From positions 1-57,582 of the IMG/VR virus record IMGVR_UViG_3300037751_000355: a DNA stretch of 57,582 nucleotides. One strand, 5' to 3'. This document shows positions 6,524 through 53,838 of the stretch, in pieces. Both the position numbers and the translations under genes were made by a program. Under the pieces are notes generated by a model that was not told the origin of the DNA, did no database searches, and saw nothing but the letters and a program-made list of their open reading frames with translations. This DNA is from a virus. Lineage: Duplodnaviria; Caudoviricetes. The first letter of the stretch is position 1; every line of letters begins with the position of its first letter.

Positions 6524-6763
6524 TCATCTCTCGCCCCCTTTCCAAACCCAAAGCATCTCCCGCGCCTCCTCTTCCGTCGGAAACTCCCCGTCGAAGTCCT
6601 CCTCCAATTCCCAAACCCGAACCCAACCCGTACCCATGCAAACCGGACATTCCTTCTCCGCGAAAATGGGCTCGGGAGGATTCACCCACGTCGCCTTCGT
6701 CCACCCCACCACGAGATCCCCCGTCCCTCTACAAGTCTCACACACTCGTTTAGTCTCATTCAT
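6524..6763 (-). CDS. Small DnaJ-type CxxCxGxG zinc-finger protein
   Basis: CETCRGTG and CPVCMGTG; AGGAGG RBS. Confidence 0.65.
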   Translation of the reverse strand: MNETKRVCETCRGTGDLVVGWTKATWVNPPEPIFAEKECPVCMGTGWVRVWELEEDFDGEFPTEEEAREMLWVWKGGER

Positions 6764-6925
6764 ACTCCCTCCTCCTCCTAATCGTGACTCCTCCTTCAAC
6801 CGCTTCAAGAGAGATCACCCAACGCGACCGCGACGCTCCGTGCCACCTCCCCCAAAGGTATCCGCACGCGAAGAGCACGGGCGCGACGAGAACGACCGTC
6901 CACACAAAGGCCCACTCGTCGGGTG

Positions 6926-7618: not shown

Positions 7619-7959
7619 TCCTCGTTCCTCCTCCTGTCTAAGTCTAATTCAACCCGCACGACGACGCAAACAACGTCCACCATAAAACGACTCCCACCAC
7701 TATCGGAAACGCGGGGGGCGTCCACCGCTCTTTCATCTCCCTCGCCTCCGCGTAAGGTGCCACCAACCACACTCCTCCCCTAGATACGCATTCATGCGTT
7801 GCCCCCGCTCTTCGATCCTCCTCGCCGAAGTCTCGGCGCTCTCTTGCGTCGGGTGCGCGGCCTTCCCGCAAACGTCACACACAATTCTAGGTCGTCCTGT
7901 ATAAGCCGACACACTCAAGTGTGTCGTCGCAAGTTTTTGCATCGTTGACTCCCTTGGTA

Positions 7960-8181
7960 TTAGAGATAGTCTTTCGTGTCTTTGCCGAGAGCAATAAGCC
8001 CCTGTATCCATTCACAATCTCGGATATGTTTTATGTCTTCCGTCAGACTTCCACCACGATTCACAACGCGAACGGGGGCGCGACAATAGAAGCAACATTC
8101 CCCGTAGTCCGAATCGTTTTCGATGGGCTCGTTCTCGGTAAGCCGTTCCAACGCCTCTAGCATCGTTATGGCGTAATGCAT
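7960..8181 (-). CDS. Hypothetical Cys/His protein
   Basis: CCFYC...H..DC; GAGGAG RBS. Confidence 0.55.
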   Translation of the reverse strand: MHYAITMLEALERLTENEPIENDSDYGECCFYCRAPVRVVNRGGSLTEDIKHIRDCEWIQGLIALGKDTKDYL

Positions 8182-8210: not shown

Positions 8211-8311
8211 ACCCGTCCAAGGTTCGACCCTTGGTTCCGTGCAAGCCTGGTGTTACCACCCTAACACAAGGTCAATCGCAGCCTGCCAAGCTCTGCCCTG
8301 GCGACACGGGT
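8211..8311 (-). ncRNA. Candidate structured RNA (four-stem junction)
   Basis: Closing stem ACCCGU/ACGGGU encloses three hairpins; G-U pairs work on the minus strand; intergenic. Confidence 0.45.
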
Positions 8312-14461: not shown

Positions 14462-15006
14462 GAGGCGTCTCCGGGGTCTTCGTCGATGATATACGTCTCT
14501 AGCGCGACGTCGGGGTCGTTATTGATGTAGACTCCTTGAAGAGAAACGTTCGCAGCCTTTCCATCCTCGTATCCGGCGTCATAGAAGTTGGAATCCGAGA
14601 GCGCCTCGTGGTAGAGGTGTGCGATTCGATCCACCACCGTTTCCTCCGCGTCCTCTAGGCGTCCCCCCACGAACTCCCGAAGGTCTTCGGGGATGAACTC
14701 CGCGAGGATGTGACGGACCTCGCGTGAGAAGATGTCTACAACGACGTGCACGAGTTCGTGGATGAGGAAGAGTTCCTTCTCGGCGAAGGTAAGGTCGAAA
14801 AAGGAGGAATCGAGATAGAGATGTGCGATGTGATAGCGGCGCTTTACGAGAATCGCTGCCTCTCCCGGGTCGTCTCCGGCACCCTTCATATGGACGCAAA
14901 TCGTCCGGAGGTCCGAGGCGACTTCCAAGAAGGGGGTGAGGAGGCTTTCGACTTCCGGTCGGAGGGCGTGGGGGAAGGCGTCCATGAACTGGATATCAGG
15001 CGTCAT
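14458..15006 (-). CDS. Zincin-like metallopeptidase
   Basis: LIHELVH (HExxH) with downstream EE. Confidence 0.65.
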   Translation of the reverse strand: MTPDIQFMDAFPHALRPEVESLLTPFLEVASDLRTICVHMKGAGDDPGEAAILVKRRYHIAHLYLDSSFFDLTFAEKELFLIHELVHVVVDIFSREVRHILAEFIPEDLREFVGGRLEDAEETVVDRIAHLYHEALSDSNFYDAGYEDGKAANVSLQGVYINNDPDVALETYIIDEDPGDAS

Positions 15007-15184
15007 TCTCGGAGTCTCTCGGAAGGATGCGGAGGTCTTGGAAGACCTTTACGTCTCCTAAGATGTCGATTCGAGCGGGGAGCGTCAAGTCTAGGACTCT
15101 GACGCCCCCGGAATCGGTGAAATTAATCGTGACGGAATTCCGCTCCGGATTGTATCGGATGATGCGGAGGAAGGTATCGGACAT
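14996..15184 (-). CDS. Hypothetical protein
   Basis: GGGGAG RBS; overlaps the downstream gene. Confidence 0.5.
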   Translation of the reverse strand: MSDTFLRIIRYNPERNSVTINFTDSGGVRVLDLTLPARIDILGDVKVFQDLRILPRDSENDA

Positions 15185-15207
15185 TTTGTCTCCCCTAAGC
15201 AGCTTTA

Positions 15208-15368
15208 GTGTGTCCCGGATTAGATTTGTATCTGGGACACACCTCTAAAAACCCGGTGTCCGTAAGGGTTTTTTGGGGGTATAGTGTGTCCGCCCTACGG
15301 ACACGCCACCTTTTTGGCCCCTTTTGGAGGTGTGTCCCGATTCTCTAACATAGGGTGGGACACACCTC
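15208..15368. other. Candidate replication origin (GTGTCC/GGACAC iteron cluster)
   Basis: Six copies in both orientations, including the perfect inverted repeat GAGGTGTGTCCC (15327-15338) / GGGACACACCTC (15357-15368), with T tracts, next to the AAA helicase gene. Confidence 0.55.
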
Positions 15369-16281
15369 ATGAGGCGTTTCCGGAGGCTATGTAGAGGTGG
15401 TTTTGAGGTGTTCCTAGGTTGAGGATTGCACCTTTTTTCACAAGTCCATCTCTCGCTCGCCTCAACTCGTCGTCTCTCGCCACGACTCCGTCCTTGAGGT
15501 CACGGAAGGAGCACCTGGGGTGTGTGAGGACGAAGTCCAAGACGGTGGACTCGACTTCCTCCGAGGTGCGGAGGAGTTGAAACTCGTCTCCTTCGAGCTT
15601 TAGGCGCGTTTCGCGGATCGGAATACGCCCTGTTCCTTTGATGATTCGGGGATCTAGACCTTCGCCGTGCATTTCGAGGATTACGTCGACGTTCGCCCCG
15701 ATCGCCGTCGAATCCCGATATTTTCCATCGGACTTGCGGGAGTGGTGGAGGATAAGCGTGGCGGCGAATTCGCGTGCGACATCGCTAATCTCGGTCATAA
15801 CGGTAGTCCAGCGCTGGGAGTCCCCGGGTTCGATCTCCTTCCCCGACGTTCGATTCGCGTAGGCGCCAAGGGTGTCCCAGATGATGAGAGAGGGATGCTT
15901 CTCCTCTGCGGCTGCCCAAATCGTTTGGATAAGCGAGAGTCCCTCGCGGGAGCCTGAGACGATGAAGATGCGCTCGGGATCGGCGCCGAAGCGGACGAGA
16001 CGTGGCGCGAAGTCATTCGCGTGCTCTTCGAGGGAGATAATTAGGACGTTCGCCGCCTCACATAGACCTCCTAGGAAGGGAGTCCCCGACGAGACAGCGG
16101 CCGCCATAGCGGAAGCGAGGGTCGATTTCCCGCCCTTCTCGCGTGCAGCGAGAAGCGTTGTTCGCTCATGCCAAACGAAGCGGGGGACGATTGCGCGGGG
16201 TGGATCCATGATCGAGGGGTCTTCGAGGATGTCGGCGAGGCAGTCACAAAAAAGGGAGGAACTTGCTTCTGGTTGAGTCAT
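15367..16281 (-). CDS. AAA_25/RepA-like RecA-fold helicase with C-terminal winged helix
   Basis: Walker A AREKGGKST, Walker B LIIWDT, HHSRKS...RDSTAI. Confidence 0.8.
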   Translation of the reverse strand: MTQPEASSSLFCDCLADILEDPSIMDPPRAIVPRFVWHERTTLLAAREKGGKSTLASAMAAAVSSGTPFLGGLCEAANVLIISLEEHANDFAPRLVRFGADPERIFIVSGSREGLSLIQTIWAAAEEKHPSLIIWDTLGAYANRTSGKEIEPGDSQRWTTVMTEISDVAREFAATLILHHSRKSDGKYRDSTAIGANVDVILEMHGEGLDPRIIKGTGRIPIRETRLKLEGDEFQLLRTSEEVESTVLDFVLTHPRCSFRDLKDGVVARDDELRRARDGLVKKGAILNLGTPQNHLYIASGNAS

Positions 16282-16339
16282 TCGTTAAATTGTCCTCGAA
16301 GATACGTGACTAGTCGTTAATTCAAACCTAAAGGATTTC

Positions 16340-16615
16340 ATGAGTCGTCCTAAAATCGCCCTCCACGAAGTCTCGTACGAACGCCTGAGCGAGGCGGAAA
16401 AGCGTCGTGCCCACCCCCCGCGAGAGATGTCTTCTGGCTCCTCCAAGGGTCCTATTCATATGTGGCTTTGTGTGGAACCATGGTGCGGGAACACGGAATA
16501 TACCTACTCGGTCCACGAGGCGCCAGTTTGTGGTGGGGGGCTCCTCTTCTCGTTCCTCACGAACGATGACTTTTCGTCTCGCGTCCATCAGCCTTGGGCG
16601 AGGAAGGAGTTCTAG
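16340..16615 (+). CDS. Hypothetical protein
   Basis: First gene of the plus-strand packaging operon; AAGGA RBS. Confidence 0.5.
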   Translation: MSRPKIALHEVSYERLSEAEKRRAHPPREMSSGSSKGPIHMWLCVEPWCGNTEYTYSVHEAPVCGGGLLFSFLTNDDFSSRVHQPWARKEF

Positions 16616-17158
16616 ATGGGGGGTAAGGGTAAGAAGGAGATAGAAAGCAATAAAGCGGTGTGGCTCGCTAAGATCGAGGCGGGCGAGATTGTTTCGATTC
16701 CACCCGAGAAGAAGGAGAACGTTGAAGACCTTCCGAGATGGGTTAAGACCGCGCTCGTTTTGTGGAAGGTAGACGGTAACTCTTATAAAGAGGCTGCGGC
16801 GCGCTTTAACAAGGCAGGAGGTACTCTTTCGTCTTACGCGAGGTCCCCGGCCGGTAGGAAGTGGCTCTCCTCCCTTGAGTCCTTCATCGAAGACCCTGTG
16901 GCGATGGCGAAGGCTTACCTTAGTGCGAATGCCCTCTCCGTCACTCTAGAGCGCTTCATCTTCCTCCAAGCGGCGATTGACGCCGGAGACTACGCGACAG
17001 GAGATAAAATTGCGAAAGACCTCCAAGATCGGATGGGAATCGTTGCGAAGAAGGCGGATGCGGGGGCGGTTTCGGTCAAGATCAACTTTGGGGGTGCGAA
17101 CTTCGACGCCCCGGTTGTCGAGGCGGAATGGACGACGGAAGGAGACGATGAGGAATGA
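16616..17158 (+). CDS. terS: Terminase small subunit with sigma70 region-4-like HTH
   Basis: Immediately upstream of TerL (ATGA overlap); LPRWVKTALVLWKVDGNSYKEAAARFNKAGGTLSSYAR HTH; C-terminal beta-strand tail. Confidence 0.7.
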   Translation: MGGKGKKEIESNKAVWLAKIEAGEIVSIPPEKKENVEDLPRWVKTALVLWKVDGNSYKEAAARFNKAGGTLSSYARSPAGRKWLSSLESFIEDPVAMAKAYLSANALSVTLERFIFLQAAIDAGDYATGDKIAKDLQDRMGIVAKKADAGAVSVKINFGGANFDAPVVEAEWTTEGDDEE

Positions 17159-18888
17159 GTGAGCTTACGATTACTCCCGGAGGGGATGAGTGGAAGAACC
17201 TCCGGAAGTTGTGTACCGAGACGCTTCCCGGGAAGAGGTCGGCTCTATACTTCCTTAATGCGAAGGTGAGGGGCCTCGAAACTGTCGTTCCTATGACTTA
17301 TCGGGCGCATCTCGCGATGTGTCTTTTCTCGGAGGACGCCACCGGCATCCCCGAGATTGACTCCGCACGCATCAAACTCATCCTCGTTCCCCGAGGTGTG
17401 GGGAAGTCAAGCATGATAACCAAGGGGCTTCCGATCCTTCGAGTTCTTCGAGATCCTGAGTACGCCACCGGAATTGCTAACGAAACCGCCGAACTCGCTT
17501 CGACGTTCCTCCAAGACATTAAGGCGGAATTTGAGTCGAATCAACTCCTTCAAATCCTCTTCCCCGAAGTTATTCCCGACGATTTCCGAGCGACGGTGTG
17601 GAAAGCGGATCGGATTATCACGAAGCGGAAGAAGTCTAATCCTACGTCTCCTACGGTACTAGCGACGGGTGTGGGAGGAACCAAGACGGGCGTTCACCAA
17701 AACGAGTGGATTGGGGACGACCTTTTGAGCCAAAACGCCGCCGAGGCCGCTTATCGGGGGAACGCGGCCGAGATCGAAGCCACGAACCGCTGGATCACGC
17801 GTCTCCAACCGCTCCTTAAGTCCCCGAAGCGCGATCCTATCAAGTTTATTGGGACGAGATGGTGGGAAGGGGATTCGTACGAGTTTGTGGAGGACTTTTG
17901 GGGGCACGAAGAGGAGCGAAAGGAGTTCCTTTGGACTCTTAAGCTTCCAGCGCAGAAGTTGGAGTGGGAAGGGGGAATCGTGGATCGTCCCCCCGAGACT
18001 CAGACGATTAAACTCTATCGGAGAGGTGAGGTTGCGGTCTTTAAGTTCCCCGCAATCGACGCTAACGGGAGGGCAATCTTCCCCGAGAGATATAACCTCG
18101 AAGAACTCCAACAGATGCAGGAGGAGGACCCCGTCTTTTATGCGGGACAATACCTCTTGGAGCCCACGGCGGGCGCCGCTTCGATCCTAGATCCCGCGTG
18201 GTTGAACACGTACGAGATCGACGGGAATGCGATCCTCTTCGACAACGCCGCGACGGGACGTAAGGAGTATCTACCCTTAAAGGACTTAACGGTGCTCATA
18301 AGCGTAGATCCCGCGTTCTCGAAGAAGTCCTCGGCCGCGAGGACGGCGATTCCGGTCGTGGGAACCGACGGCGAGCGACTCTTCCTCCTCGAAGACTTCG
18401 CGGAGCGCCTTGATTCGGAGGACGATATTGCGGCGCATGTAGTCAACTTCTACCTTCGCTATCGCAATTACGGGTGTAAGATCCCGAAAATCTTCGTCGA
18501 AACCATCGTCGCTCAGGTGGCGGTGGCGAACGCGATCCGACGCCGCTTCCGCGAGGAAGGCCTTGGAGAGCCTCCGCTCGAAGAGATCAAGAGTCACGGC
18601 CAGAAGTCTAAGGTGATGCGGATTTATGGCCTCGAACATTACGGGAAGCGAGGTATCATCTACTACCACAAGACCCAAACGAAGTTCTTCATGGAGTGGG
18701 TGTCGTTTCCGCGCGCAATCCTCCGCGATCTCCTCGACGCCATCGCCTTCCAGGTGGATGAGTGGGAGCGGATCTTCAAGATGCAACATTTCGGAGGTGG
18801 AATATCTCGGGAGGGCATCGTGAAGCGCAACGAAAAGGCGAAAGAGCGGATTCGAAAGGCGTGGGGGAGGAAGCGGCGCCGTTCGTAA
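17155..18888 (+). CDS. terL: Terminase large subunit
   Basis: PRGVGKS Walker A, IGDDL Walker B, IGTRW, SVDPA nuclease motif, FPR...DLLDA. Confidence 0.92.
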   Translation: MSELTITPGGDEWKNLRKLCTETLPGKRSALYFLNAKVRGLETVVPMTYRAHLAMCLFSEDATGIPEIDSARIKLILVPRGVGKSSMITKGLPILRVLRDPEYATGIANETAELASTFLQDIKAEFESNQLLQILFPEVIPDDFRATVWKADRIITKRKKSNPTSPTVLATGVGGTKTGVHQNEWIGDDLLSQNAAEAAYRGNAAEIEATNRWITRLQPLLKSPKRDPIKFIGTRWWEGDSYEFVEDFWGHEEERKEFLWTLKLPAQKLEWEGGIVDRPPETQTIKLYRRGEVAVFKFPAIDANGRAIFPERYNLEELQQMQEEDPVFYAGQYLLEPTAGAASILDPAWLNTYEIDGNAILFDNAATGRKEYLPLKDLTVLISVDPAFSKKSSAARTAIPVVGTDGERLFLLEDFAERLDSEDDIAAHVVNFYLRYRNYGCKIPKIFVETIVAQVAVANAIRRRFREEGLGEPPLEEIKSHGQKSKVMRIYGLEHYGKRGIIYYHKTQTKFFMEWVSFPRAILRDLLDAIAFQVDEWERIFKMQHFGGGISREGIVKRNEKAKERIRKAWGRKRRRS

Positions 18889-18941
18889 CGCTTCTGGCGT
18901 CCTACACGAGTCTTACACACCAAATTCGTTACCCCAAGCAG

Positions 18942-18960
18942 TTGACTTCCCGTTTAACTT
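18942..18960 (+). promoter_or_regulatory. Candidate late promoter TTGACT-N7-TAACTT
   Basis: Same motif and spacing at 41601(+) and 41663(-), each upstream of a virion operon. Confidence 0.5.
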
Positions 18961-19005
18961 TAAGCAACGACGTTTTAAGCCTTAACGGAGTTCTTTCCCT
19001 CCTAG

Positions 19006-21930
19006 ATGCCTTTACTTTCCGAAGTTAAATTCGGTCCCGAGCGTAAGGAGGAGTTTCTCGCGTGGATTCGCCGCGAAATCCTCCAAACCGAAGGTGATCG
19101 TGCGGGGCTTGAGAGGACGTGGGAGAATCACCTTCTCGCTTGGAGGGCGAAGGTTACGGATGAGGAACTCGATTATCCGTATCCCGGAGCGCCCTACTCC
19201 CGCGACACCGAGATCCTTACGCGCACCGGCTGGAAAGCCATCGACGAAGTCGAGGTCGGTGAGTACGTCCTGACGCGACGAGATGAAGATTCCGCGCTTG
19301 AGTGGAATCCTGTGCTGGCTAAGCCCTCTGTATGGGCCAAGGAACTCTATCATCTCCAGAGCCAGACCGTTGACCTCATGGTCACGGCCGGACATACGAT
19401 GGTGGTGGAGAACCAGAAAGGTGAACTCAAGAGGATGCCGATGGAGGATATGTGGGGGAAAGAAGGCTATTTCATCCCCCTCATGGGCACATACGAAGGT
19501 GTTGACGCTGAAAAGCTTTTCGGGCTTGATGCTGAAGATGTCGCTGAGTTTGTCGGGTGGTATATCGCAGAAGGGTCCAAGACCAACTCCGGTAGTGTGC
19601 TGATTGCCCAGAAGAAGCCTCACGGGCGCCGCGCGTTGGAGGCTCTGTTTGAGCGTCTTGGGTTCTCCTACACGGCCTACCCCAATAGCTACACCGTCCA
19701 TGCGAAATCCATGCCAGATCAGCTTCTGTTCTGGCTTGATATGGGTGTATGTGACGAGAAAAGGATTCCGGGGTTCTTTTACGGTGCATCTCCTAGGATC
19801 ATCAAGCGCCTGTTTGCGGGGATGATCGCGGGCGATGGGCACGTAAAGTGGGCTCCTGGCGCTAACCATCCGCAGATTACCTACCATACTACGTCTTCTG
19901 GGCTGGCTGACGACTTCCAGGCTCTAGCTCAGCTCATTGGTAAGCGTTCTACCATCATCTATCGGGACCGCAGTGGTGAACCCGGCGGTACGATTGATGG
20001 AAGGACGATCGTGGCGACCCGCAAGCAGGCTTCAATTGGCTTGCTGCATCACACGAGGGCGAAGATCCGTAAGCAGCACTACAAAGAAGTCGTCGAGTAC
20101 AACGACTTCGCCTACTGTGTGACGGTCAAAAACCATGCAGTGTATGTGCGGAGGAATGGGAAGCCGTGTTGGAGCGGTAATTCAAACCTAGAACTCCCCC
20201 TTACGGCGATGCACGCCGACCCCGTCCTCGCCGATATGCTTCAGAGCTTTTCGGCGTCGGAAGACTACTGGCACGCGGTAGCGAAACGCCCCGATCGCGT
20301 AGACGTCGCGTCGGCCCTTAGGGAGGGCCTGACAGCGATCGAGAAGCGCTTCCTTAAGATGCGCCGGATCAACGAGAAGGCCTTCCTCGAAGATATCGTG
20401 CTCGGGACCGCCTTTTACAAGAACCACTGGAAGTCCGAGAGACGGCGCCGGAGGCGTTACGAGGCGGATGGGGAGTCTGTGAGTGAAATCCTCATGGTAT
20501 CCCAACCCTCGATCGAGTTTGTTCCGATCCAACGCATCCGGTTCCCGGCGTATGCGTGGAGTCTCGACTTCAACGCTCCCGGAGGCACTCCTTGGATTAC
20601 GCAGGAGTTCCGATGGAGTCGTGAGGAGTTCGAGCGCTACCGTAAGGGATCGGAGGAACTCGTTGGCTTCGATACGGACGCCGCCGAAGACGTATCGACG
20701 TGGTTTTCGGACGAAGAAGAGCCCATTCGCTCCCTCATGGAGGAGGAAGACGAGTTCGAGGCGTTCGAGGACCTGAAGCACAAGGTCTTCGAGGTGTGGG
20801 CGCGTTTCGACACCCGAGGGGATGGGACGTACGAGGACATCGTGGCTTGGATTCACCTGGGAGTCCCTGCGGTCCTTCGTGCGATCTACTTCCCCAACGC
20901 TCACGGAACACACCCCTTCCATAAGATCAACTACCTTCCGGGATACGGAATCTACGGGATCGGGCTCGCGGAGATCGACGAGTGGGCTCAGGATGGAGCG
21001 ACACAACTCCTCAACGCCCAAATCGACAACGCCCGCCTCGCGAACACGAGGATGTTTTCGGCTCCCGAGGGTTCGATGCACGCGCAGGACGAACTCGTTT
21101 ACCCCGGGAAGGTGTGGTATCTTGGGCCTGACGAAGCGATCGGGGAGGTTCGACTCTCGGATCTTTATCCTTCGGGATTCGGACTCCTTCAGCAACTCGT
21201 TTCGTTCTCGGAACTCCGTTCGGGCGTGAATGAACTCCGTCAAGGAAGTCTCTCGGGCCTCCCCTCTCGAACTCCCGCCACGTCGCTCCTCTCGATCATG
21301 CGCGAGGGCAACAAGCGTTTCGACATGATCCACACGGGGATTCGAGACGTTCACTCCGAGATGGGCCTTCGGATGACTCAGAACGTCGCGCAGCGCGTGA
21401 AAGACGATCCCCTCCGGTGGCAGACGTTCTTTGCAAACGTCCTCGGACCCGAGGACGCCGGTCGCGTCCTCTCGGTCCTAACGTCTCCGGACGTCGAAGC
21501 GATCGAAGAGGCGTTTGGTATTAGCGTTACCGCGACGAGCGCGAGCGTGAACAAGGAAGTAGAGAAGCAGTCCTTCGTTGGGATGCTACAACTCACCCAA
21601 CAAATCCACGCCGCTCTCACCCAAACGATGCTCCTTCACGCTCAAGTCCCCGACCCGATGGTGCAAGCGGTCGCTAAGGCGTCCTTCGTGTCGGGAGTCG
21701 ACATTCTCCGACAACTCCTTGAGCGCTTCGAGGTCCAAAACGTCGACGAGCACATGGGGAACCTCGAAGTTATCGCGAACTCCTTCCGCGCCGAAGGACA
21801 ACCCGGAGGCAACGCCGCTACGGGTCAGTTCTTCGACCAATCCAACCTCGGGATTCTCGGCAGCGCCGGAGGAGTCCCTCCACAAGGCCTTGATATGAAC
21901 TCCATCGCCGCTCTTCTAGGAATCGGATGA
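19006..21930 (+). CDS. Portal protein (P22-like) containing an intein
   Basis: Follows TerL; extein junction reconstitutes the portal motif PYPGA|SNL; YGIGLAE, N..IDN, RTPAT motifs. Confidence 0.88.
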   Translation: MPLLSEVKFGPERKEEFLAWIRREILQTEGDRAGLERTWENHLLAWRAKVTDEELDYPYPGAPYSRDTEILTRTGWKAIDEVEVGEYVLTRRDEDSALEWNPVLAKPSVWAKELYHLQSQTVDLMVTAGHTMVVENQKGELKRMPMEDMWGKEGYFIPLMGTYEGVDAEKLFGLDAEDVAEFVGWYIAEGSKTNSGSVLIAQKKPHGRRALEALFERLGFSYTAYPNSYTVHAKSMPDQLLFWLDMGVCDEKRIPGFFYGASPRIIKRLFAGMIAGDGHVKWAPGANHPQITYHTTSSGLADDFQALAQLIGKRSTIIYRDRSGEPGGTIDGRTIVATRKQASIGLLHHTRAKIRKQHYKEVVEYNDFAYCVTVKNHAVYVRRNGKPCWSGNSNLELPLTAMHADPVLADMLQSFSASEDYWHAVAKRPDRVDVASALREGLTAIEKRFLKMRRINEKAFLEDIVLGTAFYKNHWKSERRRRRRYEADGESVSEILMVSQPSIEFVPIQRIRFPAYAWSLDFNAPGGTPWITQEFRWSREEFERYRKGSEELVGFDTDAAEDVSTWFSDEEEPIRSLMEEEDEFEAFEDLKHKVFEVWARFDTRGDGTYEDIVAWIHLGVPAVLRAIYFPNAHGTHPFHKINYLPGYGIYGIGLAEIDEWAQDGATQLLNAQIDNARLANTRMFSAPEGSMHAQDELVYPGKVWYLGPDEAIGEVRLSDLYPSGFGLLQQLVSFSELRSGVNELRQGSLSGLPSRTPATSLLSIMREGNKRFDMIHTGIRDVHSEMGLRMTQNVAQRVKDDPLRWQTFFANVLGPEDAGRVLSVLTSPDVEAIEEAFGISVTATSASVNKEVEKQSFVGMLQLTQQIHAALTQTMLLHAQVPDPMVQAVAKASFVSGVDILRQLLERFEVQNVDEHMGNLEVIANSFRAEGQPGGNAATGQFFDQSNLGILGSAGGVPPQGLDMNSIAALLGIG
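19192..20181 (+). mobile_element. 330-aa intein with LAGLIDADG homing endonuclease; begins with Pro
   Basis: Block A PYSRDTEILT, block B VTAGH, LAGLIDADG motifs GWYIAEGS and AGMIAGDG, block F AYCVTV, block G WSGN|S. Confidence 0.92.
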
Positions 21931-22148
21931 CCTCTCGCGTCCATTGCATCTCGTGTGGGGGGACTTTCGAGTCGTGCCAGCGTCACGAGCGCCTCGCGTG
22001 CGCGGGAGTCTTCCTGAGTGATCCTAAACCCACCAGAGAGCCTCCGGCGTCGGAGGACCTCGTAGAACTCGTCATGAGCCGTCTCGGAAAAGAACTCGAA
22101 GTAGTTATCCGAAAGGCGTTGCGTGATCTTCTTCTAGGAAGACGATGA
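21927..22148 (+). CDS. Hypothetical protein
   Basis: ATGA overlaps on both sides. Confidence 0.55.
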   Translation: MTSRVHCISCGGTFESCQRHERLACAGVFLSDPKPTREPPASEDLVELVMSRLGKELEVVIRKALRDLLLGRR

Positions 22149-22543
22149 GCCTCCTCGCACCCCTCCGGAAGCTCTTCGCGCCCCCTAAGGCGTCCTCTAG
22201 GACCCCCGAAGGCTTCCCAATCCCCTACGGCCTCACTCCCGAGGAATACGCACTCCTCCGCTCCCACATAAAGGAGCGAGAGTGGGAAATCTATGTAAAG
22301 GCTCTTGACTCCGCGCTTAGATTTCATGCAGAGAAATTGATTCAAACTTCGTCTAATGAAGCTTTGCACTTTTCTCGTGGTTTCATCTCTGGCCTTCGAC
22401 GTGCGGCCGGGGTTGTTAGCGAAATCGAAGCCGCAGAACGAAGCTTTAACGAAAACCTAAAACGCCAAGAGAATGTCCGAAAGCGATCCGACACAAGTCT
22501 CTACGGAACTCCCGCCTTCCGACGCACCTCCCGAGACGACTGA
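22145..22543 (+). CDS. Hypothetical head-region protein
   Basis: Usual position between portal and scaffold; ..RGFISGLR motif. Confidence 0.6.
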   Translation: MSLLAPLRKLFAPPKASSRTPEGFPIPYGLTPEEYALLRSHIKEREWEIYVKALDSALRFHAEKLIQTSSNEALHFSRGFISGLRRAAGVVSEIEAAERSFNENLKRQENVRKRSDTSLYGTPAFRRTSRDD

Positions 22544-23300
22544 AGCTCCGGCTCCACGTCTTCGGGGAAGCGATCTTCGCTACTCCGACGAGGATGACGT
22601 CCCTACGTGGGCGCGGGGGAAGACCTCAGACGAGATTCTAGCGACCGCCTCGGACCTCTACGCCGCACTCCAACGACCTCAGACCACGCCACTTGAAAAT
22701 CCCCCTTCGGTTTCTTCTCCTCCCGTGACTACTTCTTCCGACCTCCCTACGGTAGACTCTAATCTAATCTACTCAGACCCTAACGAATATCACCGTCAGA
22801 TGGAGCGTCGGACGGAAGCCCTCGTGGAGAAGCGACTCGCGAACGCCGAACGCTTGGTTATGACTCCGATGGCCTCGATGGCGCGGACTCAGGCCCAGGC
22901 GAATCCGAAGCGTAAGGATGTGTGGGAGCGTTACGCCCCGGAGATCGAGGCGATCGTTGCACGCCTTCCCGACGCTGCGAAGGCGCGCCCCGACATTTGG
23001 GACGAGGCCGCTCGTATGGTCGCGGGGGAGCACCTCGACGACATCGCTCAGGCGAGAGCGGAGGCGATTATCGCGAGGGGACGCGATTCCGGAAGCCTCG
23101 GGACGCAGGGTGGAAGCCCGAATGAGCCCATCTCGACTCCTTCGCCTCTCCGGAAACTCTTCGAAGATCGCCACATCGCGGTTAAGGGTTTCATCTCAGA
23201 CGACATCCCTCTCTCGAAGGTCCGCGAGCACTACACGAAGATGGGTTACAAGACTGACGAAGAGATCGCGAACCTCCTGACCGCACGAGTTAGCGCATGA
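22473..23300 (+). CDS. Probable capsid scaffolding protein
   Basis: Pro/Glu-rich disordered N-terminus, helical core, upstream of capsid genes. Confidence 0.65.
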   Translation: MSESDPTQVSTELPPSDAPPETTEAPAPRLRGSDLRYSDEDDVPTWARGKTSDEILATASDLYAALQRPQTTPLENPPSVSSPPVTTSSDLPTVDSNLIYSDPNEYHRQMERRTEALVEKRLANAERLVMTPMASMARTQAQANPKRKDVWERYAPEIEAIVARLPDAAKARPDIWDEAARMVAGEHLDDIAQARAEAIIARGRDSGSLGTQGGSPNEPISTPSPLRKLFEDRHIAVKGFISDDIPLSKVREHYTKMGYKTDEEIANLLTARVSA

Positions 23301-23911
23301 GCACCCCAACGAAAGCCGAAGCCACGCCTCGCAAGCCCCTCCTCTTCGCAGACGAGCGGAGCGAGGCCGAGAAGTTCGATCCGATGCTCCATAGGGGTCA
23401 CCTAGACCCCTCGCGCATCCCGGGGTACTCCGAGATCGTCATGGCAAACGACATCTCTCGCGCTGACGACCTCGTCTTTCGCAGCGCCAACGGCGTCACG
23501 AAGGAAGATATGTATCGGAAGATTGGAGCTACCCCACGCGTCTTAGACGTTGAGTTCGCGTGGTTGCCCATTTCCGGAGCCGGGGGAGCACCCTCCGAAC
23601 TCCAGACGCGGGCGCTCGACGGCTATCTCCACCAAGAAGGTTATCGTCTCGCTAGTAAGGAAGACCTTACGTCGCGAGGTTTTGGGATGCCGCCCCTAGG
23701 GCGTGAGTCCGAGGACGGCACTATTCGGCGCGGCGCTGACGTTGCGCTTTTTGTTAGATCGGGAGAAGTATCCCGTAAGTGGAATGCCTACAAGATCGCT
23801 GAGCAAGCGGAACTTGAAGGCCGACAGGTTGCTCTCTTCACCTCGGGACGCTACGAAGCCGAAGCGTTCTCGGGAGTCGAGGACGAAATGTCAGTAACAA
23901 TTCGCAACTAA
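23297..23911 (+). CDS. Hypothetical head-region protein
   Basis: Coupled ORF in the head operon. Confidence 0.6.
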   Translation: MSTPTKAEATPRKPLLFADERSEAEKFDPMLHRGHLDPSRIPGYSEIVMANDISRADDLVFRSANGVTKEDMYRKIGATPRVLDVEFAWLPISGAGGAPSELQTRALDGYLHQEGYRLASKEDLTSRGFGMPPLGRESEDGTIRRGADVALFVRSGEVSRKWNAYKIAEQAELEGRQVALFTSGRYEAEAFSGVEDEMSVTIRN

Positions 23912-23931
23912 ATACCTAGAGGAATCTAAAA

Positions 23932-24375
23932 ATGCCTAATGGCTTTTGGTACGCCTCGGGACCTTACCGGAAGGACGAGAGGGTCGCAGGTAGCGCCTTT
24001 TCGAAGGGCGACATGCTCGCTCTTGATGCGTCTTCGAATCTTTCGCGTTTGAATCCCTTCGCCGTCGCGGCGGGGACGATTTACGCTATCGCAGATTCGG
24101 ATTCGACGAACTCCATTCGTGATAAGTGCGTCGTGACGGTCATTCAACCCACGACTCGTTTCTGGTCCCGCACCACTTCAGGCGTAACACTCCTAACGGG
24201 TGAGGAGTCCGGCGTCTCGTTTGTCGCCGCTGCACCCGGACGTTATTGGGTCAACGAGTCCGCGAACACGGCTGTTGTCGTGGTCACTGAAGGTACGGAC
24301 AAGATCGACCAGAGCGTGCAGTCGAAGGTTGTCGTTCAATTCAAGTTCGCTGACAGCGAACTCGACCTCAGCTAA
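23932..24375 (+). CDS. Probable capsid decoration/cement protein
   Basis: Small beta-rich protein directly before the MCP; GAGG RBS. Confidence 0.6.
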   Translation: MPNGFWYASGPYRKDERVAGSAFSKGDMLALDASSNLSRLNPFAVAAGTIYAIADSDSTNSIRDKCVVTVIQPTTRFWSRTTSGVTLLTGEESGVSFVAAAPGRYWVNESANTAVVVVTEGTDKIDQSVQSKVVVQFKFADSELDLS

Positions 24376-24387
24376 AGGAGACTACTC

Positions 24388-25287
24388 ATGGCTATGACAG
24401 TTCAGGAGTTCCGTCGCCTGGCTGATCCGGATCTTGATAAGATCTGGCACGAAGACGACGAGCTTTATGGAGATCAGTACTCGCGTTATCTCAACGTGAA
24501 GTCTCTCGATGAGCTTTACACCATCGAAGCCGAGATGGCTGGCTTCGGACCGCCCAAGGAGATTTCCGAGGGTGACGATGTGGAGTTTGACGAGGCGATT
24601 TCGCCGCGCGAGAAGCGGTATGACATCCAGAAGTTTGGCCTCGGTTACAAGGTGACCGACAAGCTCTGGAAGAATGATCGGTACGGGGAGGTCATTAAGT
24701 TTGAGGCCGACCTGCGCCGGGCGGATGCAGACCACACGGACACGTATTTCATGGCTGTTCTCGCTAACGCGGACAACACCACGATTTCGACTGGTTTCGA
24801 TGGTCTAGCGCTCGCATCCACCGCACACGTTCGGATGGATGGGGGTGCAGTCCAGGCCAACCGTCCTACCGCGTTCACCGCCCTTAGCCTCACGGCTTAT
24901 GAGGACGCGGTGATTGCGTTTACCAAGTTCAAGGACGAGAGGGGTCGGCCGTATGTGTCGAGTCCGTCGAAGCTTGTAACGGGTCTTGACCTCGTCCTCG
25001 TGGCGAACGAGATCCTCGCGAGCCCGATGAACCCCACGACCGCGAACAACGCCACGAATGCGGTGCGTAATGTCTTTACCGTCGAGGCGAGTTCTACGCC
25101 TAAGATCACCTCTTCGTCCTATTGGGCGCTCTTGGGTGATCGCCACGACGTTAACGCTATCTGGAGGGAGCGTCCTGTTGCTTCCTCGGACACTCATTGG
25201 GAGTCCGATACCATGAAGCGTAAGGTGACGAAGTGGACGTCGCGCGGACACGGGCGGTGGATGGGCTTTTACCTCGGGTCTACCTAA
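24388..25287 (+). CDS. Major capsid protein
   Basis: EGDDVEFD, KFGLGYKVT, GFDGLALASTAH, KDERG, P.KL motifs; strong AAGGAG RBS; followed by a hairpin. Confidence 0.88.
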   Translation: MAMTVQEFRRLADPDLDKIWHEDDELYGDQYSRYLNVKSLDELYTIEAEMAGFGPPKEISEGDDVEFDEAISPREKRYDIQKFGLGYKVTDKLWKNDRYGEVIKFEADLRRADADHTDTYFMAVLANADNTTISTGFDGLALASTAHVRMDGGAVQANRPTAFTALSLTAYEDAVIAFTKFKDERGRPYVSSPSKLVTGLDLVLVANEILASPMNPTTANNATNAVRNVFTVEASSTPKITSSSYWALLGDRHDVNAIWRERPVASSDTHWESDTMKRKVTKWTSRGHGRWMGFYLGST

Positions 25288-25297
25288 ACCACGGAGT

Positions 25298-25328
25298 GGA
25301 GGGGTCCTCCGGGACCCCTCCCCCTTTC
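25298..25328 (+). terminator. GC-rich hairpin after MCP (probable terminator or stabiliser)
   Basis: GGAGGGGTCC-TCCG-GGACCCCTCC 10-bp stem; only a short T tract. Confidence 0.6.
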
Positions 25329-25341
25329 ACAGTAGAAGAAT

Positions 25342-25590
25342 ATGGCTAACTCAGAAAGAACAACCAGACTCACGAGAGTCCTGTTTGGGCCGGAAGGACA
25401 CGCTGGTGGTGGTGGAGACGAGGCCGCTCCGATTGGTTTTAGCAACATCACGACCGCCTCCCCCCTCTCGACGTTTATTCCCGACGGATACCTCTCGATT
25501 TGCTCCCACTCCGGGAACTCCCTCGTGATTGCAGTTCGTTCGGGAGCAACGACGTATCGCTTCACGAACGCCACGGGTAGTGTGCTTTAA
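25342..25590 (+). CDS. Small virion protein
   Basis: Ser/Thr-rich, after MCP. Confidence 0.55.
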   Translation: MANSERTTRLTRVLFGPEGHAGGGGDEAAPIGFSNITTASPLSTFIPDGYLSICSHSGNSLVIAVRSGATTYRFTNATGSVL

Positions 25591-25916
25591 TGAGCACTTT
25601 TCGTTCGGACCTTTTCGGAGGTGTTTCGGGCAACACGAGCACTATCTATCTCGTAGCCGATGCGGCCGAGATGACGCTCTTTTATGACGTGGACTCAGCG
25701 ACGTCGCTTGAGATCCACGGCTCGAACGCCTCAGGCTTTCGTCACGCGATCCTTGAAGACGAATGGTCGGTGCTTACGACGATTGTTGGTGCGTCCGATA
25801 ATGGGCTTGTGAATATCGAGCCTGGGTTTCGCTGGGCGCGCGTCGTTCGAGAGAGTGATACATCGCTTCCGAGCGCGGTCTTACATGGGCGGAACGTCGT
25901 CCGAGGACACGGTTGA
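25590..25916 (+). CDS. Small virion protein
   Basis: TAATG overlap; beta-rich, FRWARV motif. Confidence 0.6.
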   Translation: MSTFRSDLFGGVSGNTSTIYLVADAAEMTLFYDVDSATSLEIHGSNASGFRHAILEDEWSVLTTIVGASDNGLVNIEPGFRWARVVRESDTSLPSAVLHGRNVVRGHG

Positions 25917-26047
25917 ACATGAGACGAATTGTGATTCGCCTTAGGAATTGGTTGCACGAGAAGCTTTATAGGGAAGCGCTTCCTAACGAGAATGGAGTAG
26001 TTCGGATCAGCGCCGAACTCATAGACGACTTACAAGGGAAATTTTAA

Positions 26048-26431
26048 ATGGCTTCTTCAAACTCTTGGGCGGATTATGTCTTTGGGTACGCCTTCGCCGC
26101 TGCGTCTTGGGCGACGCAGGCGACCTTTGTTTCGCTTCATGACGGCGACCCCGGGGCGACCGGGGCGAACGAGCTTTCGAACGCCACGTACGCGCGCGAA
26201 GCGACGGGGGCGTTTGCGAACATCTCGACTGCCACTAGCGTCACCACGAATGACTCGGTGATTACATTCAACACCGACGGCGACGGCGAAACCGTCACCC
26301 ACGCGGGCATTTGGTACGGCGTGTCGGGCGGGACGTTCCTTTTCGGGGGTGCTCTCGGTTCGAACTTCGCCTATAACAACGGTGTTACGCCTGTTTTCGA
26401 TGCGGGTGCGCTTAAGCTAATCGCGTCGTGA
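26048..26431 (+). CDS. Minor virion/tail-associated protein
   Basis: VSLHDGDPG..G.NE...YAR...N...ITF...VTHAGIW...GGTFL motif. Confidence 0.7.
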   Translation: MASSNSWADYVFGYAFAAASWATQATFVSLHDGDPGATGANELSNATYAREATGAFANISTATSVTTNDSVITFNTDGDGETVTHAGIWYGVSGGTFLFGGALGSNFAYNNGVTPVFDAGALKLIAS

Positions 26432-26432
26432 C

Positions 26433-26780
26433 GTGGGCGTTGCGTGTCGCTACGTAGACCCTACGGACGTCTTCAACGATTACGTTTGGCCTCCGAGGTC
26501 TATGAATTTGTGTATCTCCAAAGCGGAGATCGACACCCGTCCTATGAGTGGCGATGACTGGACGGATCTTCTAGCGACGGCCGACGTCGATCCGTGGCCA
26601 GACGCTGCGATGAGCGACCAGGACTCGACGACGAACCTGTACGCAATGTCGGGCGCGCTCGTTTATCTGAGGACGGGTACGACTAGTTATCGTGAAACGC
26701 GCATACGCACTCAACTCAACGGCGGCACGAAGGGCTACGCGTTCACTCACTACACCCACTCGGGAAGGTCGGTGTCTTGA
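26433..26780 (+). pseudogene. Probable internally deleted lyase-like virion gene remnant
   Basis: ISKAEI...P.SG..W...SDQDS..N....ALVY.RTG..YR joined directly to a C-terminal-like G...FT..TH motif. Confidence 0.35.
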
Positions 26781-37436: not shown

Positions 37437-37509
37437 CTGGGGCGGGAGGGTTCGAACCTCCAACCTCCTGGGTAACAGCCAGGCGCTCTGCCGGTTGAGC
37501 TACACCCCA
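37437..37509 (-). tRNA. tRNA-Asn(GTT), CCA not encoded
   Basis: Cloverleaf: TGGGGTG/CGCCCCA acceptor, GCTC/GAGC D-stem, CCTGG-CTGTTAC-CCAGG anticodon arm, GGAGG-TTCGAAC-CCTCC T-arm. Confidence 0.95.
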
Positions 37510-37543: not shown

Positions 37544-37573
37544 AAGATAACACTCGAACGGGTGAGGTGTCAA
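37544..37573 (-). promoter_or_regulatory. Sigma70-type promoter for the tRNA/exonuclease/glycosyltransferase operon
   Basis: TTGACA-18 nt-TATCTT with extended -10 TG. Confidence 0.6.
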
Positions 37574-37856: not shown

Positions 37857-39890
37857 CTACTTCATTATCCGTGCGGCTTGTAGGTCCGCGATGAGTGTGC
37901 CCACAACATCCGCCAACTCAGCCACGAGCACAGTGTCCGCGTCGAAGGCCCGGTCCGTCGTGACATTGGTGGGGGTGTACGTCTGGGCGTCGTCCTCCAA
38001 CACCGCGTCCGCGTTGTTTACGACGGTCCCCACAACCCAGTGGTTGCGGAACAGGTGAACCTCGTCCACCGTAGCGTCGAACGAATAGTCGTTGGTCTGG
38101 TTGGCTCCGGCGACCAGTGCGGTGTTGTCGTTCACGATCAGTAGCCCCACCCCTCCGGCCACTACCGCCGCTTCCAAGGAGGAGCTGCCTTGATTCGTGG
38201 CACTGTTCCCCGGTAGGTCATTGCCCTCCAGGCGCACTAAGGCGAACGGGTTGTCGCCGTCGCCTTGAACATGAATCCCCGCGTTACCACAGCCGTTGAC
38301 GTCGTTGCGCCGGGCCTTCACGCTTTGTGCCGCGTCACTGGTACCAATGTTTCGGAGCAAGATGCCTTGCGCCGTACCGTCCGACACGTCGTTATCATCG
38401 GCCAGCGTCAGCCCTGCGTGGCGAAGATCCAACCCGCCCCCGACCACAGTATTCCGTGAGCACAAGATTTTTCGTAGTGGCTCCCCGGCCAACCCGGTAA
38501 TGAAGACACCAACGTTAACCTCATTGGCGAGACGCACAGCGTTCCCGACCACGCTTACTTCAGTCGAAGAGCCAACGGCAAACCCGGTCCCGTAATCCAG
38601 ATAGATCCCAGAACGGGCGGTGCCCGTGTACTCAATCGTATTGTCATGGATACGCAAATGCCCGCCACGGGTGGTGTGATCGCCCGTCGCGCCGCTCTGA
38701 AAGGTTACTCCGTTCGCGCGTGTGGAGTTCGGGTTCGGGAAATAGCTCTGTATGAAGTTGTCGCTGACATCGAAGTGCGAACCCAGTAGCTCGCGTATCC
38801 CGACCCCCTGCCCCTTACCTGTTACCGTGTTGTTCGTGAAGGCAATGTAATCGCCCGCGAGCAACGCGCCTCCGCATACATTCCCGTCGAACCGTACATA
38901 CTCCGCGTTACCATGACAGTCTAGCGCCGCCCTACCCTGCGCCTCACTCGTCAAGGTGTAGTTGCCCCCTTGCACGAGGATACGACGGTTCGGGATGATA
39001 GCCCCACCCATCGCAATCGCATGTCGAGTAGCTTGAGCGCCGCCACCAAGGATGCTCAACTCTTGCACACCCGTGAGAGACAAGCCGTATTGCTCTGTGT
39101 CTGCAGCGGCGGTCATCGCGGTGTAAGAATCGCGCACATTGCCGCGGAAACAATACTCTCCAAGCTGTACTGTCGCGCGTTCTGCACCGGCCAAGCTACA
39201 ACCCGCCAAATGGTAATTGTGAACTCTGCGGAGTCGCAGTCCGATATTCACATCCTCTGGAAACTCGAACTGGATCCCCTCTGCTGAAAACTCTATCGGG
39301 TCGTATTCAAACGCCTTAAACGTACCAGACGCGGTGTATTCACCCATTACACGGTTCCGCACGTCCACCGTCGTTGTTGCCTGCGAAGCGATCTCAACAA
39401 TCTCTCCGGCCACGTACTCGTCTCGTGCGGAATTGAAACTACCCACCGCCGAGTCCCTAAGCACTAGCAAACCAGAAAGGGAACCCGGGTCCGATGCGAA
39501 CGTAATGGCGGTCGCCCCCTCGGCGACTGTTTCCGGGGCTTCCGCGACTTCCACCAAATCCGGGCCGTACACGTCTAGCGAAACGGACGGGGCTTCCGGG
39601 GGCGGGTCAAGAAAGCGAATCGTAGTTAGGCCAGACCCCGCCCCTATCCAGTGCTGGCTGGTGGTGATCTCAACCCGGGTCGCATTGACGACGAAATCAC
39701 CCGGGGGGAAATACAACTGTTTTCCACCTGCCGCTGCCCTCGCCGCCAGGATTGCGGCGGTGTCGTCCACCCCGTCGCCCTTCGCCCCGAACGCCTTCAC
39801 GTTAAACACATCTCCCGCCGCTTGGTTCAACCACTCGTTCATATTCGCCGGAGTGGCTAAGTCCCCATCACTCACATAATTCACACTCAT
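37857..39890 (-). CDS. Tail spike / pectate-lyase-like beta-helix depolymerase
   Basis: FNVKAFGAKGDGVDDTAAI...LYFPPG motif; long beta-helix repeats. Confidence 0.85.
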   Translation of the reverse strand: MSVNYVSDGDLATPANMNEWLNQAAGDVFNVKAFGAKGDGVDDTAAILAARAAAGGKQLYFPPGDFVVNATRVEITTSQHWIGAGSGLTTIRFLDPPPEAPSVSLDVYGPDLVEVAEAPETVAEGATAITFASDPGSLSGLLVLRDSAVGSFNSARDEYVAGEIVEIASQATTTVDVRNRVMGEYTASGTFKAFEYDPIEFSAEGIQFEFPEDVNIGLRLRRVHNYHLAGCSLAGAERATVQLGEYCFRGNVRDSYTAMTAAADTEQYGLSLTGVQELSILGGGAQATRHAIAMGGAIIPNRRILVQGGNYTLTSEAQGRAALDCHGNAEYVRFDGNVCGGALLAGDYIAFTNNTVTGKGQGVGIRELLGSHFDVSDNFIQSYFPNPNSTRANGVTFQSGATGDHTTRGGHLRIHDNTIEYTGTARSGIYLDYGTGFAVGSSTEVSVVGNAVRLANEVNVGVFITGLAGEPLRKILCSRNTVVGGGLDLRHAGLTLADDNDVSDGTAQGILLRNIGTSDAAQSVKARRNDVNGCGNAGIHVQGDGDNPFALVRLEGNDLPGNSATNQGSSSLEAAVVAGGVGLLIVNDNTALVAGANQTNDYSFDATVDEVHLFRNHWVVGTVVNNADAVLEDDAQTYTPTNVTTDRAFDADTVLVAELADVVGTLIADLQAARIMK

Positions 39891-40084: not shown

Positions 40085-40353
40085 GACTCCCTCCGCTCCT
40101 CCAAGAGGAATCTAGGTTCGTCCTCACTAGTCCTCCGCTCCGACATGTTCTCGACGTTCTTAAGGCGTGCGTCGTGCTCCCCATCAGTCTTCGTGAGGAC
40201 GTCGAGCTTGACGTGAATCCCACGAAAGCTCTCTCGTACCTCCTCCTTAAAACCATTAAGGGAGTTCTTACCTCCCTTATTGCCTCCCACAATCGCTCCG
40301 ATAGTAGCGGTGACTGCGCCCGCGAGGGCCGTAATGACTTCGGGCGTCATCAT
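40081..40353 (-). CDS. Membrane-anchored coiled-coil protein (holin-like)
   Basis: N-terminal TM followed by a heptad region. Confidence 0.5.
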   Translation of the reverse strand: MMTPEVITALAGAVTATIGAIVGGNKGGKNSLNGFKEEVRESFRGIHVKLDVLTKTDGEHDARLKNVENMSERRTSEDEPRFLLEERRES

Positions 40354-41033: not shown

Positions 41034-41061
41034 CGACCCCTTGACATGTTATTATTCGGGC

Positions 41062-41604: not shown

Positions 41605-41619
41605 CATCCTTAGTATCTT
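41601..41619 (+). promoter_or_regulatory. Candidate late promoter TTGACA-N7-TATCTT
   Basis: Matches the 18942 motif; upstream of the ejection-protein operon. Confidence 0.5.
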
Positions 41620-41644
41620 AAAGGTGGGCCATTATGCCCTATAA

Positions 41645-41663
41645 ATGATAACGCTTTAGTCAA
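41645..41663 (-). promoter_or_regulatory. Candidate late promoter TTGACT-N7-TATCAT
   Basis: Minus strand, pointing to the adaptor/tail spike operon; shares ACCCC-N5-GTTGAC with the 18942 copy. Confidence 0.5.
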
Positions 41664-41682
41664 CCTTCAGGGGTCTAACGCT

Positions 41683-53829: not shown

Positions 53830-53838
53830 TCTGTGTCG

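Follow-up and report, generated by a model that had tools for sequence, protein, structure and literature searches.

A short-spacer TTGAC/TAnnTT element at virion gene junctions of an SU10-like phage lineage: a candidate promoter class with its -35-type box one helical turn closer

Promoter spacing is among the most rigid rules of bacterial transcription, and the DNA upstream of the portal gene of this phage raises the question of what could read two promoter-like boxes that lie only 7 bp apart. The window, that is, the whole stretch of DNA analyzed, is a single virus contig of 57,582 bases that makes up the entire record. An earlier note had described a motif of this kind at three places and proposed a late promoter class with shortened spacing; all three occurrences, at 18941 (+), 41600 (+) and 41664 (-), were found to be exact. 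If such boxes work at 7 bp, then some protein must change the distance that the polymerase measures.

GC3-based gene calling yielded 88 proteins, and by these calls of our own 53,817 bases are coding and 3,765 non-coding (6.5% of the genome). The predicted genes, together with Pfam and PHROGs matches, show a podophage of the SU10/GP4 structural type, predicted to be a lytic SU10-like phage. They include TerL (17155-18888; phrog_38, E 5.9e-64), the portal (19006-21930, plus strand; SU10_portal, E 3.9e-19), the capsid (24388-25287), a Gp80-like fiber protein (26048-26431), a tail spike of the pectate-lyase/beta-helix kind (37857-39890), the adaptor (40350-41033; SU10_adaptor, E 1.4e-12) and a split family-A DNA polymerase on the minus strand (45949-48593), as well as an RNA ligase, a Sak4-like protein and a DnaB-like helicase. 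The virion genes fall into two rightward blocks, 16340 to about 32850 and 41683 to 45944, and one leftward block from 41033 to 37857; those in 41683-45944 are putative ejection genes, so labeled from position and composition only.

Several of these genes have unusual architectures. The portal ORF is 974 aa long and carries a LAGLIDADG_3 domain at residues 269-328, the complete portals of relatives having 524-654 aa; the insertion looks like an intein or a homing endonuclease, and intein or LAGLIDADG Pfam domains are also found in several TerL relatives of 909-919 aa. The two polymerase ORFs are adjacent, one with a UDG-like N-terminal part (46974-48593) and the other with the DNA_pol_A palm and fingers (45949-46977). 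At 7921-8181 the caller picked a plus-strand ORF (7921-8160), where the minus-strand ORF 7961-8181, a Cys-rich frame of 73 aa with a GAGGAG ribosome site, matches the strand of the neighboring genes; the plus-strand ORF 53611-54168 is likewise doubtful. The ends of the record are diverged direct copies (1-1611 versus 55297-57523), with 1-125 matching 55297-55421 at 98%, 132-422 matching 55622-55912 at 94% and 1118-1260 matching 56538-56680 at 97%. Large paralogous proteins are encoded there, one of them bearing a DGHHR (ParB-like) motif, and the copies could be imperfect terminal repeats, paralogues or the assembly of two variants.

Other signals were recorded in the same genome. Three dyads on GGACACAC/GTGTGTCC at 15208-15242, 15284-15306 and 15330-15365 occupy 15208-15365, in a 182-nt gap before the gene 14996-15184, and positions 7907-7926 contain a related one, CGACACAC-tcaa-GTGTGTCG. 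Operators, an origin or early control signals are possible roles for these dyads; the dyad 8-mer, with one mismatch allowed, showed no genome-wide enrichment (41 versus 41 expected). Directly 3' of the major capsid gene, at 25298-25321 (+), a perfect 10-bp stem, GGAGGGGTCC-tccg-GGACCCCTCC, is followed by CCCTTTC. It is likely to be a terminator or an mRNA-stabilizing hairpin, and it escaped the T-run rule of the terminator scan.

Site A (GTTGACT-TCCCGTT-TAACTT, 18941-18960, plus strand) lies 46 nt upstream of the portal start at 19006, with a predicted transcription start at about 18966-18968. Site B (GTTGACA-TCCTTAG-TATCTT, 41600-41619, plus strand) overlaps the stop codon of a T5orf172-like gene and lies 64 nt ahead of the first putative ejection or internal-protein gene (TTG start at 41683), with transcription predicted to start at about 41626. 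Site C (GTTGACT-AAAGCGT-TATCAT, 41645-41664, minus strand) points to the adaptor and tail spike genes, and its predicted start is at about 41638. We scanned the window with a PWM whose training set was 18 distinct sites from relatives, the window and two loci (L001 and L005) being left out of it. The top five sites scored 16.1 to 18.7, in the order B (18.7), C (18.4), E (17.2), A and F (16.1 each), and the next one 12.7; block-shuffled windows held 0 to 2 sites scoring at least 14. All five sites share the strand of the virion genes downstream of them.

Two of these five sites, F and E, were absent from the first description. Site F (GTTGAGT-N7-TAAATT, 16272-16291, plus strand), tied for fourth place, is located 49 nt ahead of 16340, where the packaging operon's first gene begins, in a divergent gap of 58 nt, and overlaps the start codon of a minus-strand helicase-like gene. 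The candidate site E (CTTGACT-N7-TAGATT, 22304-22323, plus strand) lies within a small ORF (22145-22543), with a scaffold-like gene 150 nt downstream (22473) and the capsid gene farther on; it is less certain as a promoter because it is intragenic. A further candidate, an N6 variant (TTGACC-N6-TAGGGT, 8258-8275, minus strand) before the 73-aa gene 7961-8181, precedes small non-virion genes with no virion gene adjacent. The link to virion genes is therefore not strict, one site being inside an ORF and another before non-virion genes. We set aside GTTGACT-N7-TATTAG at 7944-7963 (+) as a probable chance match: it runs antisense to the gene 7961-8181 at its end and scores 9.5 with the PWM.

Sites B and C do not lie back-to-back; they are face to face, with 25 bp between their -10-like hexamers. 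Each predicted transcript would thus cross the other site, and at that distance two polymerases could not occupy both together. So close a facing pair is unusual for strong late promoters, and the arrangement predicts mutual exclusion of two polymerases and a short antisense overlap of the 5' ends. The orientation of site C toward the adaptor and tail spike, as earlier proposed, is correct, but the adaptor start is about 610 nt away because a T5orf172/GIY-YIG-like gene (41062-41604, plus strand; weak PHROG endonuclease matches) intervenes. This gene stands between the facing pair and the adaptor in the window and in one close relative (L016, at about 650-1190) and is absent from eight other close relatives. 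Having a canonical, predicted leaderless promoter of its own, it is likely to be mobile. The segment between the facing hexamers (41620-41644) contains a short dyad, GGGC-cattat-GCCC, whose folding is no better than that of shuffles (z -0.3 and -0.9), and a 5' stem-loop between B and C in the window was rejected on that ground.

Within the window, the exact pattern of the three sites gave 3 matches against 0.00 in 100 shuffles, a pattern that was written after the sites had been seen. A genome-wide scan with TTGAC-N8-TANNNT found 4 matches against 0.58 +/- 0.77 expected, and one of the 100 shuffles reached 4. When the spacing in TTGACW-Nx-TANNNT was varied from 0 to 25, there were 4 matches at x = 7 and at most 2 at every other spacing; a stricter -10 word over the same spacings gave 3 at N7, 1 at N18 and none elsewhere. 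The motif is not equally common inside genes, as four of the five perfect TTGAC short-spacer matches (N6-8) are non-coding and one is coding.

TerL and adaptor protein searches returned more than 130 relatives each, and DNA was retrieved for 99 loci. We analyzed 95 of them (322,937 bases), having dropped L001, which is identical to the window, and L096-L098, which duplicate metagenome loci. With TTGACN-Nx-TAnnTT on both strands, 21 matches were found at x = 7, 11 at x = 6 and 24 at x = 17, compared with 0 to 3 at each of the other 23 spacings. The reversed-sequence control for the two peaks gave 1 and 3, and 50 block shuffles of the loci averaged 1.9 and 1.4 with a maximum of 5. Collapsing contexts that were at least 80% identical left 16 (N7), 8 (N6) and 22 (N17) sites. 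An unbiased tally of the 5-mers at the N7 distance upstream of TAN[AC]TT had TTGAC at the top (15), with its offset and the variants TTGCG and TTGAT next; the same tally at the N17 distance was also led by TTGAC (19). The two spacing peaks and the tallies indicate that this lineage uses the same two boxes at spacings one helical turn apart.

We then looked at orthologous positions. The 160 nt before the adaptor start were checked in 76 loci, leaving out five with no upstream sequence (L024, L039, L057, L091 and L094) and L095-L098. With near-duplicate loci counted (L015/L023, L021/L025 and L035-L037), the full 9-of-9 match was present in 9 of 10 loci with at least 55% adaptor identity, in 10 of 17 with 39-45% identity and in none of 49 more distant loci. 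The tenth close locus, L016, carries the T5orf172 insertion as the window does, and its facing pair lies beyond that gene; among the other loci at 39-45% identity, two have TTGAT and one has TTGCGG. Between TerL and the portal, the motif occurs in seven of nine loci, in strict form in L002, L007, L008 and L011, with TTGCGC in L003 and L004 and with N8 in L006, and was not found in L009 and L010.

The spacers at orthologous sites are unrelated (AAAGCGT, ACAGTAG, TTCACGC, CCATCGT, GGTGTGC), while TTGAC, TA and the final T are fixed. The short spacing is thus kept in relatives, as the first proposal required, at 7 bp (range 6 to 8) at orthologous junctions with the spacer sequence free; the N6 form is the rule in L019-L022 and L025. 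An ACCCC-N5 box upstream, which had also been pointed out, is present at two sites of the window but is not kept in relatives, where the consensus is just ..ccTTGAC. All 21 strict matches in the loci point to the query gene or are the facing partner of a site that does. The motif is oriented to virion genes and kept at the same junctions in relatives (TerL-portal, adaptor and ejection genes). At the level of DNA, these comparisons show a selected element with a defined motif, spacing, orientation and gene context.

The facing arrangement of B and C is kept in L015-L023, L025 and L026, and a counterpart of site B occupies the same place in L015, L017-L023, L025 and L026. In L016-L018, L021, L022 and L026 a dyad lies between the facing hexamers, with a sequence that differs in each relative; the strongest, in L026, folds at -24 kcal/mol compared with -8 for shuffles. 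This dyad may be a 5' stem-loop common to both transcripts, or an operator. Four distant relatives, G001-G004 (165 kb, two of them complete), contained no match, indicating that the class is confined to one sub-lineage. A scan of IMG/VR for the facing double motif gave 89 stretches, none of which encodes an adaptor relative; with one weak TerL-like match among them (24% identity over 118 aa), these were treated as unrelated or chance.

The same phages also have canonical promoters. In the window, tRNA-Asn (37437-37509, minus strand) is served by TTGACA-N18-TATCTT at 37544-37573 (-), in agreement with the normal spacing earlier noted for the tRNA promoter. Before the T5orf172-like gene, a TG-extended TTGTCA-N17-TATTAT lies at 41027-41055 (+), and the ATG of that gene (41062) follows 6 nt later, predicting a leaderless message; this promoter also accounts for a TTGACA (41041) that stands 3 bp ahead of TATTAT, a pairing that was discarded. 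As canonical N17 and N18 promoters serve the tRNA and the mobile gene, the host sigma apparently reads the same hexamers at normal spacing. A standard promoter scan found no canonical promoter-like site in the structural block (15000-26500), with 3.6 expected. There is no canonical promoter within 40-60 nt upstream of sites A, B, C and F, and no -10-like hexamer 16-18 bp after the TTGAC boxes of the short-spacer sites. The single exception to this separation is L005, where the short-spacer box has a canonical promoter, TTGACT-N17-TATCTT, 15 nt ahead of it.

In relatives, canonical N17 promoters precede the packaging genes and many other genes. The designation of the class as "late" is questionable, given that use of N17 before packaging genes and the N6 variant at 8258-8275 before non-virion genes. 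In a clade that does not have the N7 class (L053-L056, L059-L061 and L066), a conserved gene beginning MKIVGA has its ATG 5-6 nt after a canonical TTGACA-N17-TAGATT promoter, and these loci form a clear series of genes predicted to be leaderless.

The second hexamer behaves like a -10 element, since start codons follow it 4-8 nt later: ORFs of at least 60 aa start at that distance at 6 of 21 distinct N7 sites and at 11 of 23 N17 sites. The conserved adaptor start MP(R/S)W/Y.. is an ATG 5-6 nt after the hexamer in L029, L030, L031, L033, L035-L037 and L041. This is as expected for a -10 element that would give a leaderless mRNA, an arrangement also described for Thermus phages in the available text of bioRxiv 10.64898/2026.04.20.719267. 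The second hexamers fit TAnnnT (TAACTT, TATCTT and TATCAT in the window; TAaaTT in relatives), and the upstream boxes are near TTGACA, being TTGACT, TTGACA and TTGACT at A, B and C, with ccTTGACt as the consensus of relatives. The bases that precede the -10-like hexamers of the window sites are GTT, TAG, CGT, CGT and GCT; an extended -10 (TGn before the hexamer) is absent from all five, and a G two bases upstream of the hexamer is found at 12 of 22 sites. In L028-L037 the 7-nt spacer is purine-rich (GAGG) and overlaps a ribosome-binding site, which could act on read-through transcripts and give the spacer a translational role.

The reading we favor, and consider moderately probable, is that these sites form a promoter class whose -35-type box lies one helical turn closer than usual and which would be read by a polymerase altered by a phage factor. 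The comparative evidence supports this reading well. TAnnTT (TAWCWT in this genome) would be the -10 element, with transcription starting 5-7 nt after it, and TTGAC(W) would be a -35-type box moved from the usual -35 to -30 region to about -25 to -20. One turn closer, the TTGAC box would still lie on the same DNA face, and its tolerance of +/-1 equals that of the normal spacer (7+/-1 versus 17+/-1). The beta flap of an ordinary holoenzyme keeps sigma region 4 some 17 bp away from region 2; with region 4 fixed on the flap, the short-spacer class would need another reader. Either a phage factor could free and re-seat region 4 of the host sigma, or a compact phage sigma-like or activator protein could read TTGAC beside the host's -10 reader. 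From the sites we infer both that RNA starts there and what kind of reader is involved.

We tentatively suggest, as a possible mechanism, that a phage factor moves region 4 of the primary sigma off the beta flap and one turn downstream during initiation, so that the same TTGAC reader, normally at -33, would act at -23. A near-equivalent bold reading would be a compact, cryptic sigma of the phage with two DNA-reading domains side by side. This lineage offers a within-genome comparison of the same boxes at N17 and N7, which would make the factor findable, and recognition of the class would improve the annotation of operons and promoters in uncultured phages.

The search for a reader covered Pfam (E at most 1e-3 for 88 proteins, at most 1 for 36) and PHROGs (44 and 55 proteins); neither returned a sigma factor, an RNA polymerase, AsiA, MotA or a clear Q. 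The sole sigma-family match was Sigma70_r4_2 at E=0.21, in the presumed small terminase. A 94-aa zinc-finger protein (6524-6808) weakly matched phrog_6060, "antitermination protein Q-like" (E=3.3e-4 over 21 residues), and no phage protein searched matched the Pfam Q family. A phage-encoded RNA polymerase gene was not found, there being no match to an RNA_pol family in Pfam or PHROGs; the DxDGD polymerase motif was absent from the large proteins, with a lone D.DGD in a 172-aa acidic protein. We found no sigma-54 or enhancer-binding ATPase in the phage. The 754-aa protein and the adaptor had no sequence match in the PDB, and a 523-aa early protein matched only viral hypothetical clusters in the Atlas. 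Of the proposal that a remodeled holoenzyme or an activator reads the element, the selected bipartite element has held up, whereas no candidate gene for the reading factor was found. Sigma mimics can escape sequence profiles, as the available part of a report on mycobacteriophage D29 gp53 describes (bioRxiv 10.64898/2026.10.05.756390). Because such mimics can be invisible to profiles, failure to find a sigma is weak evidence of its absence.

It is unlikely, in our estimation, that the host reads these sites unaided, by an alternative sigma with close elements or by its primary sigma acting on the -10 alone with TTGAC as an auxiliary. The idea draws on the failure to recognize a phage sigma or RNAP-binding protein and on the placing of the -10-like hexamer by itself, 4-8 nt before start codons in many relatives; -10-only promoters are, moreover, frequent in bacteria that make much leaderless mRNA. 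A TerL profile search of the contigs of 185,579 species gave no relative from which to identify the host, which may belong to a leaderless-rich, high-GC phylum, and there is accordingly room for such a sigma. Nevertheless, TTGAC and the 7+/-1 spacing are conserved no less strictly than the -10 hexamer, although the spacers drift. The canonical promoters of these phages also have this very box as their -35 box, suggesting the same kind of reader, and we know of no sigma-70-family factor that reads elements 7 bp apart.

We regard it as improbable that the element has no part in initiation and is instead the operator of a phage repressor or activator, or a sigma-dependent pause or antiterminator loading site of the lambda Q kind. 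The pause element of lambda PR' follows the same logic, with region 4 on a -35-like site beside region 2 (PMC9388147, in its available text). The canonical promoter upstream of the L005 box, the weak Q-like match of the zinc-finger protein and the dyads between facing copies in several relatives would also fit. However, in the 40-60 nt upstream of sites A, B, C and F, where such a pause would need a canonical promoter, there is none, and the adaptor ATG that follows the hexamer by 5-6 nt in nine loci fits a start point. Asymmetric half-sites identical to the -35/-10 consensus are atypical of dimeric regulators, and the dyads differ between relatives, that of the window folding no better than shuffles.

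Chance, by which AT-richer intergenic DNA would yield promoter-like hexamers, is refuted: the window holds only three to five sites, first matched with a post hoc pattern, and one shuffle in 100 reached 4 matches to the general pattern, but in relatives N7 and N17 stand about tenfold above every other spacing and above all 50 shuffles, and the sites hold their position at orthologous junctions.

We compared the promoter class that we favor with systems already described. Canonical sigma-70/sigma-A promoters (TTGACA-N17-TATAAT) have the same two hexamers and also tolerate +/-1 bp, but their spacer is 16-18 bp, where that of the short-spacer class is 7 (6-8) bp. An unmodified holoenzyme is not expected to span a 7-bp spacer. 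The 17-bp spacing follows from the placement of sigma region 4 on the beta flap-tip helix, according to the available text of PMC9388147 and PMC12276001. Sigma-54 promoters resemble the short-spacer class in having two boxes about one turn apart, near -24 and -12. Their consensus is GG at -24 and GC at -12, whereas the boxes here are TTGAC and TAnnTT, and GG and GC are absent from the sites.

Middle promoters of T4 are similar in that the host -10 is kept and the reading of the -35 is replaced by that of a closer box. This is the MotA box at -30, about 12 bp from the -10, used in the appropriation of sigma by AsiA/MotA; T4 AsiA/MotA and Thermus P23-45 gp39 are remodelers of sigma-4 and the flap other than lambda Q. 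The short-spacer class differs from T4 middle promoters in the sequence and distance of its box, TTGAC at 7 bp, and no MotA/AsiA family match was found in the phage. The phiEco32-type phages are the nearest studied structural kin, phiEco32 and 7-11 sharing with this phage the SU10-type portal and adaptor and a switch to a phage-specific promoter class. Their gp36 promoters have a single AATGTA box centered at -11.5, as given in the available part of PMC12276001; unlike them, the short-spacer sites have no AATGTA, and no gp36-like sigma was found here.

The late promoters of the Thermus phage Lalka27a, as presented in the available text of the preprint (bioRxiv 10.64898/2026.04.20.719267), have a TAGGGT -10 and a conserved C at -25 and are mostly leaderless. 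To judge from that text, they share with the short-spacer class a TANNNT-type -10, a conserved position near -25, starts 6 nt downstream and an inferred phage factor, but they have a single conserved base instead of a full TTGAC box, another -10 word and an unrelated phage and host lineage.

The earlier note knew of no described equivalent. We likewise found no initiation promoter with TTGAC and TAnnnT spaced 6-8 bp in the openly available full-text literature, but a structural precedent does exist in lambda Q. In the Q loading complex, as the available text of PMC9388147 describes it, region 4 is off the flap and on a -35-like site beside region 2, with the same DNA contacts. At that site (PR', TTGACT; sequence in PMC4604602), as far as these texts go, a -35-like box is likewise near a -10-like box and a phage protein helps, but there the polymerase is elongating and has paused a short way past a normal promoter, and almost nothing separates the two boxes. 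The short-spacer class differs in its 7-bp spacing, in having no upstream promoter in view and in the start codons that follow it in some relatives; a placement at most about 25 nt downstream of a normal promoter, typical of Q sites, does not apply at A, B, C and F and occurs in L005 as the single exception. If region 4 is indeed re-seated at these promoters, this would be the initiation-stage counterpart of the action of lambda Q and a new mode of sigma appropriation, by which a phage would make a private promoter class out of the consensus boxes of its host.
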